Virus record (IMG/VR): IMGVR_UViG_3300032050_000049
Coordinates: 1 to 30,620 of that record
Strand: one strand, 5' to 3'
Length of the DNA stretch: 30,620 nucleotides
From: a virus
Lineage: Duplodnaviria; Heunggongvirae; Uroviricota; Caudoviricetes
Shown here: positions 1 through 2,611 of the stretch, in pieces
Layout of the letters: the number at the start of each line of letters is the position of its first letter
Position numbering within the stretch: the stretch's first letter is position 1
Program-made: the position numbers and the translations under genes
Notes under the pieces: generated by a model
Databases searched by the model: none
Seen by the model: only the letters and a program-made list of their open reading frames with translations
Told to the model about the DNA's origin: nothing

Positions 1-23
1 AGATAAAAAAGTAGTAAGTAATA

Positions 24-40
24 GTTCTTTAACAAATTTT
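24..40 (+). promoter_or_regulatory. boxA-like antitermination element upstream of tRNA-Lys
   Basis: GTTCTTTAACA at 24-34 fits the rrn boxA consensus GYTCTTTAANA; related motifs recur at 602, 785, 1653, 2109 and 2213. Confidence 0.55.
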
Positions 41-43
41 AAT

Positions 44-120
44 GGCCTTGTAGCTCAGTTGGTAGTAGCAGAAGCCTTTTAAGCTTTTGGTCGTGGGTTC
101 GAGTCCCACCGGGGCCACCA
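44..120 (+). tRNA. tRNA-Lys(TTT)
   Basis: Acceptor GGCCTTG/CGGGGCC, anticodon arm GAAGC-CTTTTAA-GCTTT, T arm GTGGG-TTCGAGT-CCCAC, encoded CCA. Confidence 0.95.
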
Positions 121-124
121 TTTT

Positions 125-338
125 AACTGGTAATAAACGAAGTAAATCATATATTGTGGGACAACTACACTTTTAAGTATCGTGATTGATTACGAAAGCA
201 TTTTTTCCGTGTAGAATTTGACTTTCATCATTAAACATATTAAATGATTAACCCAAACACAACTGTGTGCTGTGCTGAAAAATGTCCGCTACACAGCGAT
301 GCTTACGTAGATAAGTAACTCAATGAATATTACCAGTT
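125..338 (+). ncRNA. candidate structured RNA A between tRNA-Lys and tRNA-Glu
   Basis: Perfect 11-bp closing helix AACTGGTAATA(125-135)/TATTACCAGTT(328-338) enclosing nested helices 165-170/209-214, 180-185/190-195, 227-232/243-248, 269-274/292-297 and 300-305/312-317; strand assumed from the flanking tRNAs. Confidence 0.5.
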
Positions 339-346
339 CATTTAAC

Positions 347-422
347 GGAGTCATCGTCTAACGGTTTAGGATAATTCCCTTTCACGGAATAGATCAGAGT
401 TCGATTCTCTGTGGCTCTACCA
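347..422 (+). tRNA. tRNA-Glu(TTC)
   Basis: Acceptor GGAGTCA/TGGCTCT, anticodon arm ATTCC-CTTTCAC-GGAAT, T arm CAGAG-TTCGATT-CTCTG, CCA end. Confidence 0.93.
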
Positions 423-429
423 TTTGATG

Positions 430-587
430 TTTGGTTGTATAGCTAAGAAAAACAACTTGGTGGAGGGTATATAACCAAAATGCCCCTAGAGTTGGAAGTT
501 CTCTTAAAAAACTTCTTGGTTGCGGGGTTAGCGCATGGTATACTCTGTTTGTTGGGTGGATAGAGTATTCAATAGATACACCCAACA
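430..587 (+). ncRNA. candidate structured RNA B ending in an H-type pseudoknot
   Basis: 12-bp helix 430-441/468-479, hairpin 495-500/510-515, pseudoknot S1 ATACTCT(540-546)/AGAGTAT(562-568) with S2 TGTTGGGTG(550-558)/CACCCAACA(579-587). Confidence 0.5.
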
Positions 588-623
588 TAATTTTTAGGAT
601 AGTTCTTTATAAACAATTTAAAC

Positions 624-698
624 AGCTGGCGGCAGGTTATTATTTGACGATGGCTCATAACCATTGGTAACTAAGTGAGATTCTTAGGCGAGCGACCA
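624..698 (+). tRNA. aberrant tRNA-like gene, anticodon CAT
   Basis: Anticodon arm GATGG-CTCATAA-CCATT, T arm CTAAG-TGAGATT-CTTAG, acceptor AGCTGGC/GCGAGCG with 1:72 and 5:68 mismatches, ACCA end; D arm poorly paired. Confidence 0.6.
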
Positions 699-706
699 TT
701 TGTAAT

Positions 707-778
707 GGCTGGGGCTTCAGCAAGCAAGATTCTTTCATACGGAATCTTTAATGAGGGCAGCACTCATACCAGCTACCA
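707..778 (+). tRNA. aberrant tRNA-like gene, anticodon CAT, miniature D loop
   Basis: Acceptor GGCTGG/CCAGCT, D arm GCTT-CAGC-AAGC, anticodon arm GATTCT-TTCATAC-GGAATC, T arm ATGAG-GGCAGCA-CTCAT, ACCA end. Confidence 0.6.
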
Positions 779-853
779 TTTATTGTTCCTTGAAATTTTA
801 ACTTTTGTGTAAATAAAATGTATTCTTGTTTGGCTCTCTAATATATATTAGAT

Positions 854-1633
854 ATGACAGAAGAAGAATACTTGTTAAATCCAAATAAATGTAATGTTTG
901 TAGTTCTATAATAAAATACAATTCTAGAGCTAGAGAAAGAAATAGAAAATATTGTAGTTTGCAATGTTTTGCAAAATCAAGGACTATACTCTCTATTGAT
1001 GATTATGAAAAAAATCCATTAAAATGCTGTGAATGTAATCAGATAATTTTGTTTTCTAAAAAAAGAAAACGAAAAAAAGTATATTTTTGTGGCAATAAAT
1101 GTGCGGCTATTTATAGAGGTAGAAACTTTAAGTTAAGTGATGCTGGACTAAAAAGTTTAATAGAAAAACATAAGGTAATACAGAAGAAAGTTTGGACTAA
1201 AGAAAAAAGGTTGGAACATTCATTGAAAATGAAGAAAGCAGTGGATGATAATCCAGAATCTTATTCTAGTAAAAATGTTTGTGGTAGAGTTAAAACAATT
1301 AAGACTATAGATAGTTTAGGTAATGAAACTAGTTGTCTTGGTAAATGGGAATTATTGGTAATAGATTATTTAAACAAAAATAATATAAGATGGTCAAATA
1401 AGATTGAAGAAAATTTCCAATATTATTGGAATGAATCTTACCACAGATATTTTCCAGACTTTAAATTATTAGATTATGATAATGTCTTTATTGAAGTTAA
1501 AGGATATGAAAGAGATAGAGACAAAGCTAAGTGGGAACAATTTCCACATAAACTAATAATTATAAAAAAAGAAGAAATTGAAAAGTTAAAAACAAATAAA
1601 TTTCAGTTGACTTTTGAAAATTTGACACTATAG
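854..1633 (+). CDS. putative free-standing (homing-type) endonuclease: N-terminal CxxC/YCSxxC zinc-binding repeats plus C-terminal PD-(D/E)XK domain
   Basis: CNVC..YCSLQC and CCEC..FCGNKC repeats; C-terminal WE..YFPDF..FIEVKG motif typical of PD-(D/E)XK nucleases; located inside the tRNA array. Confidence 0.7.
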   Translation: MTEEEYLLNPNKCNVCSSIIKYNSRARERNRKYCSLQCFAKSRTILSIDDYEKNPLKCCECNQIILFSKKRKRKKVYFCGNKCAAIYRGRNFKLSDAGLKSLIEKHKVIQKKVWTKEKRLEHSLKMKKAVDDNPESYSSKNVCGRVKTIKTIDSLGNETSCLGKWELLVIDYLNKNNIRWSNKIEENFQYYWNESYHRYFPDFKLLDYDNVFIEVKGYERDRDKAKWEQFPHKLIIIKKEEIEKLKTNKFQLTFENLTL

Positions 1634-1634
1634 T
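1607..1634 (+). promoter_or_regulatory. sigma70-like promoter for downstream tRNAs
   Basis: TTGACT(1607-1612)-16 nt-TATAGT(1629-1634), overlapping the endonuclease stop; followed by boxA-like GTTCTTTTAAAA at 1653 and tRNA-fMet. Confidence 0.5.
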
Positions 1635-1667
1635 TAGTATATAAGATTTGATGTTCTTTTAAAAATT

Positions 1668-1744
1668 TGCGGGGTAGATCAACGGAATAGATCGTCCGGC
1701 TCATAACCGGAAGGTAGAGTGTTCAATTCACTCCCCCGCTACCA
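1668..1744 (+). tRNA. initiator-type tRNA-fMet(CAT)
   Basis: Acceptor TGCGGGG/CCCCGCT with an unpaired 1:72 position, anticodon arm TCCGG-CTCATAA-CCGGA, overall similarity to bacterial tRNA-fMet. Confidence 0.88.
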
Positions 1745-1750
1745 TTTAGT

Positions 1751-1844
1751 GGTTCCGTAGTTTAACGGTAGAACGCAACGCTTATAACGTTGATAAGCTC
1801 TAGATTTGAGCACGGTCTCGGTTCGAATCCGGGCGGAACCACCA
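1751..1844 (+). tRNA. tRNA with TAT (Ile) anticodon and long variable arm
   Basis: Acceptor GGTTCCG/CGGAACC, anticodon arm CAACG-CTTATAA-CGTTG, variable arm GCTC-TAGATTT-GAGC, T arm CTCGG-TTCGAAT-CCGGG, ACCA. Confidence 0.88.
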
Positions 1845-1865
1845 AATTTAGGAACTATATCGTGC

Positions 1866-1960
1866 GTAGAGAAACATTAATAATGACTCTACTATTCGTG
1901 AAAGTCTAACGGTAACTCTTCCATATCGTAAATGATGGTGCAAATCCATTGGAAGAACAA
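1866..1960 (+). ncRNA. candidate RNA C: hairpin plus acceptor/T-arm minihelix
   Basis: Hairpin GTAGAG(1866-1871)/CTCTAC(1887-1892); 7-bp TCTTCCA(1917-1923)/TGGAAGA(1950-1956) stacked on ATGG-TGCAAAT-CCAT, ending ACAA. Confidence 0.35.
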
Positions 1961-1968
1961 TTTTAAAT

Positions 1969-2045
1969 GGCTAGGTAGCCCAAAGGCAGGAGGCAGCACT
2001 CTCAAAAAGTGTACAGTGTCAGTTCGAATCTGACCCTAGCTACCA
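1969..2045 (+). tRNA. tRNA-Leu(CAA), short variable loop
   Basis: Acceptor GGCTAGG/CCTAGCT, anticodon arm GCACT-CTCAAAA-AGTGT, 5-nt variable loop ACAGT, T arm GTCAG-TTCGAAT-CTGAC, ACCA. Confidence 0.9.
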
Positions 2046-2061
2046 TTTTTTGAAAAAGCAG

Positions 2062-2089
2062 TTGACATCAGAAGATGATGTGGTAAGAT
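2062..2089 (+). promoter_or_regulatory. strong sigma70-like promoter with extended -10
   Basis: TTGACA(2062-2067)-16 nt-TAAGAT(2084-2089) with TG at 2081-2082; followed by boxA-like GTTCTTTAAACAATTTA at 2109. Confidence 0.7.
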
Positions 2090-2126
2090 AAAAGAGTAGT
2101 AAGTGATGGTTCTTTAAACAATTTAT

Positions 2127-2202
2127 GCCTATGTAGACCAACGGCAGAGTCACGAAACTTAAAATTTCGGTAGTACTGGTTCGAATCCAGTCATAGGCAC
2201 CA
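2127..2202 (+). tRNA. tRNA-Leu(TAA), short variable loop
   Basis: Acceptor GCCTATG/CATAGGC, anticodon arm CGAAA-CTTAAAA-TTTCG, 5-nt variable loop GTAGT, T arm ACTGG-TTCGAAT-CCAGT, ACCA. Confidence 0.9.
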
Positions 2203-2212
2203 TTTTTTGATA

Positions 2213-2228
2213 GTTCTTTAACAATTTA
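2213..2228 (+). promoter_or_regulatory. boxA-like element upstream of candidate RNA D
   Basis: GTTCTTTAACAATTTA differs at one position from the E. coli rrn leader sequence GCTCTTTAACAATTTA. Confidence 0.6.
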
Positions 2229-2514
2229 AGATAGTGGCGGAACAACCTTTGTATAGGGGTAACGCACAATAGTGGTGAAGAATCATTATTGGTTGGAGTA
2301 ATAATGTGCAGTGTAAGTCTATGGCGGATTGTGGGTCGTACAACCTATAATTCAAGCGTAACGACATCGTAGCTAAAATAAATGATATATCGTAGGTCGT
2401 TGTGGGAAACCAATCCCATCAATCGTTAACATAGAGAGTAATTAACTTTATGGATTGTGGATGAATAACGGTGCATATTGTGAAACTTGGAGGTAATCAT
2501 TAGTCCTTCCTATT
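2229..2514 (+). ncRNA. candidate large structured RNA D (about 285 nt)
   Basis: No credible ORF; helices 2265-2271/2476-2482, 2284-2290/2300-2306, 2360-2365/2396-2401, 2403-2407/2414-2418, 2420-2424/2453-2457, 2430-2436/2446-2452; possible loop-loop pairing TTGGTT(2289-2294)/AACCAA(2408-2413). Confidence 0.6.
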
Positions 2515-2525
2515 TGAATTTAAAT

Positions 2526-2598
2526 GCGGGTCAAGTGTAAAGAGGGCACGCTGGTCTACCAGATCAGAAGGCGAAATGCAAAGTTCGGACCCGCTCCA
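2526..2598 (+). tRNA. tRNA-Gly-like with ACC anticodon and atypical T arm
   Basis: Acceptor GCGGGTC/GACCCGC with U73 discriminator (bacterial Gly-like), anticodon arm CTGGT-CTACCAG-ATCAG, T arm CGAA-ATGCAAAG-TTCG. Confidence 0.75.
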
Positions 2599-2611
2599 GT
2601 TTTTTTAAAAT

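Follow-up and report, generated by a model that had tools for sequence, protein, structure and literature searches.

The first 2.8 kb of a 30,620-nucleotide (nt) stretch of a phage genome (Caudoviricetes; IMG/VR record IMGVR_UViG_3300032050_000049, positions 1 to 30,620; hereafter the window) hold a plus-strand array of tRNA genes and other RNA-like elements in which a short motif, GTTCTTTAA(C/A)AA, recurs immediately upstream of the RNA genes. Identification of this motif as a boxA of the rRNA operon (rrn) type, which an initial annotation of the sequence had proposed, is strongly supported, because it matches genuine rrn leader and spacer boxAs, keeps a strict sense orientation, is conserved at orthologous positions in 12 relatives and is restricted to the tRNA array in two relatives available as whole records. 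We propose, with a probability of about 0.65, that the boxAs of the array are boxA-only loading sites for NusB and ribosomal protein S10 (NusE) on transcripts made by host RNA polymerase. On this sequence-based reading, the phage probably borrows the rRNA transcription and folding machinery of its host for untranslated RNAs of its own.

Identity, distribution and context of the motif

All six boxA strings listed in the initial annotation are found on the plus strand at the positions given there, and five of them do lie just 5' of a tRNA or other RNA gene. Two match the consensus GYTCTTTAANA (PMC5725501) perfectly. The first, GTTCTTTAACAAATTT (24..39), starts 20 nt 5' of tRNA-Lys(UUU) (44..120; called by ARAGORN and, at 64.2 bits, by the Rfam tRNA model). 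The last, GTTCTTTAACAATTTA (2213..2228), which is invariant in all relatives, lies 11 nt past the 3' (CCA) end of tRNA-Leu(UAA) and directly before a structured RNA of about 370 nt (2229..2600) that starts with AGATAGTGGCGGAAC. This RNA contains no open reading frame (ORF), matches no Rfam family and is kept in relatives, its start always standing behind the invariant boxA in at least 12 IMG/VR contexts (including L141, L148, L161, L180-L182, L195 and L208). Three further copies carry one change each. The copy at 602..620, GTTCTTTATAAACAATTTA, has an intact core with extra bases in its A-rich half, and precedes one or more tRNA-like RNAs (624..778) with a CAU anticodon-type arm, an encoded ACCA end and a cloverleaf-like predicted fold, for which there was neither an ARAGORN call nor an Rfam match; relatives keep orthologous boxA copies ahead of the same CAGCTGGCGGCAGG RNA. 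The copy GTTCTTTTAAAAATT (1653..1667; the string at 1653 reads GTTCTTTTAAAAATTT) starts 15 nt before tRNA-Met(CAU) (1668..1744), and GTTCTTTAAACAATTTA (2109..2125) starts 18 nt before tRNA-Leu(UAA) (2127..2202), both tRNAs being recognized by ARAGORN and Rfam. The sixth string, at 785, has three changes and falls outside the consensus; it is treated separately below.

The exact 16-mer GTTCTTTAACAATTTA was sought in 185,579 species genomes, and 80 bacterial loci were examined. At least 29 of these are rrn loci, 22 lying less than 600 nt upstream of a 16S 5' end and seven upstream of 23S; 18 further loci end at a contig edge within 400 nt, about ten running into rrn leader sequence with boxC. 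The sequence is carried by Beta- and Gammaproteobacteria (Methylophilaceae, Alcaligenaceae, Burkholderiaceae, Oxalobacteraceae, Alteromonadaceae, Pasteurellaceae and others), in whose leaders promoter, hairpin, boxA and GTGTGGG follow one another in the textbook layout. Across five Beta- and Gammaproteobacterial genomes, the 12-mer GTTCTTTAACAA occurs 23 times, in 21 cases as the boxA of an rrn leader or spacer, and a published spacer boxA, that of Taylorella, reads TGTTCTTTAACA (PMC2666751). The rrnB leader of Escherichia coli reads GCTCTTTAACAATTTA, 144 nt upstream of 16S, with about seven copies in every E. coli genome; the phage 16-mer GTTCTTTAACAATTTA differs from it by a single C-to-T change at the Y position. 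Both the consensus and the E. coli leader boxA are given correctly in the initial annotation. The phage 16-mer was also seen outside the Proteobacteria, in a metagenome-assembled genome of the candidate phyla radiation (L058, Candidatus Paceibacterota), where 165 nt separate it from a 16S-like start downstream.

Within the array (2853 bp) the core GTTCTTT occurs five times in sense and never in antisense, compared with a mean of 0.33 in dinucleotide shuffles, none of 5000 of which reached five. The other 27.8 kb of the window contain eight occurrences, both strands together, at a density 12-fold lower than that of the array (Poisson P 7e-5). Twelve related IMG/VR arrays carry the motif three to eight times each, in sense, with its first G placed 13-22 nt 5' of tRNA 5' ends. 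Over all 13 family arrays (39.6 kb) GTTCTTT is found 81 times in sense and eight times in antisense, while the DNA flanking them (about 98 kb) has 22 sense and 28 antisense occurrences. A count of 7-mers anchored only on tRNA 5' ends, and covering the 40 nt upstream, likewise ranks GTTCTTT first; it occurs in 30 of 76 distinct leaders, where 1.1 would be expected. In the complete 296-kb record of one relative (G002), seven of 17 near-matches to the 12-mer lie in its 3-kb tRNA array, all in sense, as do five of 19 in the tRNA array of the second whole record (G001); outside the arrays, near-matches in both are no more numerous than those to a reversed-pattern control. A motif equally common in other AT-rich DNA, a possibility raised at the outset, was looked for in the window, in the flanks and in these two records, and is not what they contain.

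Orthologous leaders keep the boxA core on diverged flanks. At the level of sequence, variation outside the GTTCTTT core follows the boxA pattern: among family sites, position 8 is A in 72%, position 9 is A in 84%, position 10 is A or C in 84% and position 11 is A in 71%, and of 58 distinct sites, 31 show no departure from the full consensus. Not every tRNA has its own copy. Among 86 family tRNAs, 33 carry the motif, 19 stand within 20 nt of a preceding tRNA and lack it, and 34 lie behind other RNA-like elements, so that the motif punctuates units of one to three genes. In the window, tRNA-Ile(UAU) (1751-1844), which begins 6 nt past tRNA-Met, is without a boxA of its own.

Two copies had initially been placed just downstream of predicted promoters, and to these a third can be added. 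The copies at 1653 and 2109 start 18 and 19 nt, respectively, past the -10 hexamers of good sigma-70-like promoters, predicted as TTGACT-16-TATAGT (1607..1634) and TTGACA-16-TAAGAT with TG (2062..2089), the second being followed by a GTAGTAAGTGATG leader. The promoter of the copy at 24 is cut by the window start: the leader AGATAAAAAAGTAGTAAGTAATA (1..23) opens with the end of a -10 hexamer, TAAGAT, and continues with the conserved initial transcribed sequence GTAGTAAGT, and relatives (L013, L003) read TTGACA-N17-TAAGAT-AAAAAAGTAGTAA-GTTCTTTAA. Three of the five copies (24, 1653, 2109) are thus promoter-proximal; those at 602 and 2213 are internal, no promoter having been found upstream of the former. 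Of 77 boxA sites in the family, 32 lie 6-40 nt behind a predicted sigma-70-like promoter. In predicted centroid structures boxA is unpaired, as at 24, or marginally paired in all five leaders of the window. A GTAGTAA-type leader, GTAGTAAGT(R)AT, was also noted between the -10 hexamer TAAGAT and boxA in 26 of the 77 sites (positions 1-23 and 2090-2108 in the window); it might belong to the context of the start site, or be another element for pairing or for binding a protein.

Proposed function and competing explanations

In the mechanism we favour, host RNA polymerase would start at the sigma-70-like promoters of the array. No homologue of the RNA polymerase beta subunit or of NusB was found in G001 or G002; a search for a T7-like RNA polymerase (PF00940) also gave no match and carries no weight, since control genomes gave none either. 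Single-stranded boxA would emerge at about +6 to +13 of the transcript, or behind an upstream tRNA, and would be bound by host NusB/S10, which together with NusA, NusG and SuhB would render the polymerase fast, termination-resistant and RNA-chaperoning, as it does for rRNA. RNase P would then remove the boxA-bearing 5' leader, and with it the RNA tether, at every processed gene, after which the boxA of the next unit would reload the complex in the manner of the 16S-23S spacer boxA of rrn operons. Reloading is plausible because the boxA leaders would be cut gene by gene and because rrn operons, with their second, internal boxA in the spacer, offer a precedent. Nus binding, and the gain to the phage, whether in protection against Rho, in speed or in folding of the terminal helix, are what we infer from these arrangements.

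Several observations weigh against the loading-site proposal. Firstly, the phage copies lack the complete rrn antiterminator layout of boxB, boxA and boxC. No boxB hairpin lies next to the motif, the gap of 13-19 nt from -10 hexamer to boxA leaving no room for one, and no GTGTGGG (boxC) was found at the phage copies, where the RNA gene starts within 13-22 nt. Some family copies, moreover, retain only the GTTCTTT core (GTTCTTTCAGCA, GTTCTTTGTAAG). Secondly, no cellular counterpart has been described for a boxA so close (13-22 nt) to the 5' end of a mature tRNA, and none of the 23 GTTCTTTAACAA copies in the five bacterial genomes precedes a free tRNA operon. Thirdly, sense matches to the boxA consensus are absent from the tRNA arrays of T5, FelixO1, rV5 and the E. 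coli phage phiWec188, as well as from those of two T4-like phages, Vibrio phage D479 and Acinetobacter phage Konradin; a T5 match at 33699 is antisense to the T5 tRNAs. The absence of boxA from the arrays of these six phages makes the trait lineage-specific rather than general. Fourthly, the label 'host-type' derives from the motif itself. Lastly, the initial annotation had assumed a long untranslated operon. Untranslated RNA genes do lie behind the boxA copies, but at least three internal sigma-70-like promoters break the array into short transcription units, and its RNA contains little C (C 14%, G 21%, median C/G 0.71), with only two 78-nt windows at a C/G of 1.5 or above. RNA so rich in G relative to C, with few stretches resembling Rho utilization (rut) sites, suggests that the threat from Rho is modest.

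Given short units and few rut-like stretches, speed, or the chaperone role by RNA looping that PMC4807359 proposes for the rRNA transcription complex, may be more important than protection from Rho. The closeness of boxA to the 5' strand of each terminal helix would fit such a role. Carried further, the boxAs might chiefly be folding tethers for individual genes rather than anti-Rho elements, a variant we regard as possible, if rather unlikely. NusB/S10 would then hold each 5' leader at the RNA exit, and the 3' strand of the acceptor helix would emerge beside its 5' partner, insulating each odd-shaped RNA from its neighbours. The tether idea would explain the 13-22 nt spacing, the provision of one copy per one to three genes, the use of boxA in very short units and the low rut content, and it would extend the looping chaperone model of the rRNA complex to RNAs the size of tRNAs.

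An unlikely competitor to NusB/S10 loading is an RNA processing signal, whose likeness to boxA would be incidental or secondary. The motif would then be cut preferentially by RNase E/G or by an endoribonuclease of the phage, or would guide RNase P from within the leader, and would so divide the array into single RNAs. The motif stands 13-22 nt 5' of mature ends, in A/U-rich single-stranded spacers and often right after a CCA end, where tRNA precursors are cut; it is supplied once per one to three RNA genes and not once per operon. The string ACA/AUUU would also suit the loose preference of RNase E, which is RN/WUU. However, an RNase E-type site has no need of 16-nt identity with rrn leaders, and what is invariant is the boxA core GUUCUUU, not the A/U-rich part. 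Processing at the motif is also hard to reconcile with the 19 closely following family tRNAs that have none, and with other phages, in which a single copy heads six to 20 packed tRNAs with no motif between them.

That the leaders are decoys, soaking up host NusB/S10 and so disturbing host rRNA synthesis, or that they are sites for an RNA-binding protein of the phage, seems improbable. Many copies per transcript, each in a leader that is cut off, and identity with the rrn signal of Beta- and Gammaproteobacteria would serve a decoy well, but the idea has no precedent and no candidate phage protein, and the single copy at the head of arrays in other phages suits action in cis better.

We consider it very improbable that the motif acts as DNA, be it within a phage-specific promoter or operator, or because homing endonucleases or recombination between array cassettes target it. 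The motif does fill the spacer of a weak promoter-like sequence, TTGATA-17-GATAGT, at 2207-2235, and one copy is the exact insertion point of an endonuclease-like ORF, a degenerate relic of that copy remaining. However, the -35-like part varies among relatives (TTGATA, TCAATA, ATATTA) around an invariant motif, transcription starts dictated by the motif would lie within tRNAs, the motif is not palindromic, and about 40% of copies lie behind a good sigma-70 promoter and hence in the transcript. A general phage promoter was considered as well and rejected, the motif being absent from the rest of the complete 296-kb relative G002.

The notion of a neutral relic, left by cassette duplication or by capture of host rrn spacer DNA, in which tRNA genes do lie beside boxA, deserves hardly any credence, as boxA follows the tRNAs in rrn spacers but precedes tRNAs of many identities in the phage, and as sense bias and an invariant core on diverged flanks persist in relatives that share only 60-85% identity in the neighbouring structural protein.

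Known systems and other phages

So far, rRNA, lambdoid phages, suhB and CRISPR (clustered regularly interspaced short palindromic repeat) arrays are the cases in which control by Nus factors and boxA is established. The nearest parallel to the proposed loading sites is the rrn operon itself, whose boxA, served by a complex of NusB, NusE/S10, NusA, NusG, SuhB and S4, likewise is oriented in sense with untranslated structured RNA genes and stands behind sigma-70 promoters. The geometry differs, rrn boxA standing 91-367 nt from the mature 5' end in the operons examined as opposed to 13-22 nt in the phage. Unlike rrn operons, phage arrays have five to eight boxAs in 3-4 kb, placed before tRNAs and small RNAs and unaccompanied by boxB or boxC.

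CRISPR arrays resemble the phage array in having boxA as a sole leader element for a long untranslated RNA that is processed. Natural boxAs upstream of CRISPR arrays were reported by Stringer et al. 2020, as described in PMC7862264, and in Legionella the 11-nt boxA GTTCTTTAAAA raised the RNA of an untranslated synthetic CRISPR array about 10-fold (PMC7862264). This Legionella variant is common in the present phage family. CRISPR arrays, however, have one boxA, 58-90 nt or more upstream, whereas the phage copies recur between genes. The suhB 5' untranslated region (Baniulyte et al. 2017, PMC5725501) also holds a boxA-only element, near the 5' end of the gene that it controls; there the Nus complex represses a translated gene, whereas the phage targets are untranslated. 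The boxA survey published there explicitly left out non-coding RNA genes.

Among phages, lambda similarly exploits NusB/S10 through boxA in its own nutL and nutR transcripts, as set out in PMC2800207. Its boxA deviates from the rrn consensus and needs a boxB hairpin and the N protein, neither of which was seen in the window phage; the present motif follows the rrn consensus and not the lambda variant, and the copies do not form lambdoid nut sites. The early leader of T7 comes closer, with a perfect rrn-type boxA, GCTCTTTAACA (813-823), behind the host-polymerase promoters A1-A3 and independent of N protein. The T7 boxA is single and stands ahead of translated early genes, while that of the window phage is repeated before RNA genes. 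This T7 element has, we presume, been described as a boxA before.

Beyond the family, the GTTC-type 16-mer was examined in 75 non-family contexts in IMG/VR. Fourteen lie within sense tRNA clusters, seven of them directly before a tRNA, compared with none of 86 for a reversed control 16-mer in sense tRNA clusters (P 1e-5). The E. coli-type GCTC 16-mer stands directly before a tRNA in seven of 81 IMG/VR contexts, and no boxA match in these contexts sat in an antisense tRNA cluster. On three unrelated contigs a single boxA, GCTCTTTAACAATTTA, lies 21-31 nt before the first gene of a tight tRNA run (L472:2737-5105, 20 tRNAs; L461:643-2358, 14; L366:391-1454, six), which is the layout expected of a leader antiterminator. 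One of these (L461) has a second boxA-like string, GCTCTTTAGCAA, just upstream of the boxA of its tRNA run. The 16-mer was also met in one identical context, GACTGTGGGAT-boxA-GTGCTTGTGCGG, with no tRNAs nearby, in isolate-derived prophage-like sequences (L137, L140, L147, L168, L178, L190, L193 and L198) and in a Mannheimia sequence (L048); this boxA may be part of an early phage operon.

No account of boxA in the tRNA arrays of phages came up in our literature search, and one apparent match of boxA with phage tRNA concerned only the BOXA1R primer for the polymerase chain reaction. The element is therefore a known one in what is apparently an undescribed arrangement: boxA alone, recurring with each unit and placed right at the 5' ends of tRNAs and small RNAs of the phage. 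If the loading-site proposal is true, it would account for the efficient expression of long or dense untranslated phage operons by host polymerase, and boxA would both flag unannotated phage RNA genes and provide a short marker predicting host range at class level, from GTTC- or GCTC-type proteobacterial boxA. Leaders of about 20 nt would, in addition, offer a compact natural system for testing the complex as an RNA-folding tether, as well as a practical rule for the design of synthetic tRNA or guide-RNA arrays.

The interrupted copy and other features of the array

The degenerate string at 785..800, GTTCCTTGAAATTTTA, does precede an ORF, as initially stated. The ORF (854..1633, plus strand, 259 amino acids) encodes a putative homing-type endonuclease on the strength of a weak match to PHROG 945 'endonuclease' (E 1e-5), and has no Pfam match. 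It sits between the string at 785 and tRNA-Met; a promoter and a new boxA lie at its end. Relatives without the ORF (L181, L182) have an intact boxA running straight into tRNA-Met, reading CCAGCTACCATTTTA-GTTCTTTAATAATTT-tRNA-Met, and another relative (L161) shares the insertion of the window. Judging by this comparison, the string at 785 is best seen as the relic of a boxA interrupted by insertion of the ORF, and conserved boxA leaders may be homing targets.

The window has a G+C content of 35%. Its array contains eight tRNA genes (Lys, Glu, Met, Ile-UAU, Leu-CAA, Leu-UAA, Ile-UAU and Met; ARAGORN, Rfam), between which lie ORF-free stretches resembling structured RNAs and the one 259-residue ORF, and genes for virion and tail proteins follow beyond it. 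Searched by megablast against 50,697 phage records, the array gave no match, and a distant-mode search of the same records returned single tRNAs only, so that neither a cultured relative nor a host could be identified. Relatives were recovered by protein-based search, solely among uncultured IMG/VR contigs, with the neighbouring structural protein 60-85% identical. Rfam searches assigned no family to the boxA motif or to the non-tRNA RNAs of the array, a sub-threshold wcaG match being the only extra result.

Some minor features of the array may be recorded. The spacer 3' of tRNA-Glu (425-530) gave a sub-threshold match to the wcaG RNA (30.2 bits for a gathering score of 42; E 0.005), and the wcaG-like sequence is kept in relatives, such as L003. 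The two tRNA-Ile(UAU) genes (1751-1844 and 2612-2704) measure 93-94 nt and have long extra arms, and both tRNA-Leu genes are short, at 76-77 nt. In two relatives (L003, L006) the tRNA behind the same promoter-boxA leader holds a group I intron in its anticodon loop (L003:13131-13323, minus strand; Rfam Intron_gpI, 74.8 bits). The tRNA-Leu(UAA) of the window (2127-2202), unlike this counterpart, is intronless; a tRNA-Leu(UAA) intron at this site is otherwise typical of cyanobacteria and plastids.

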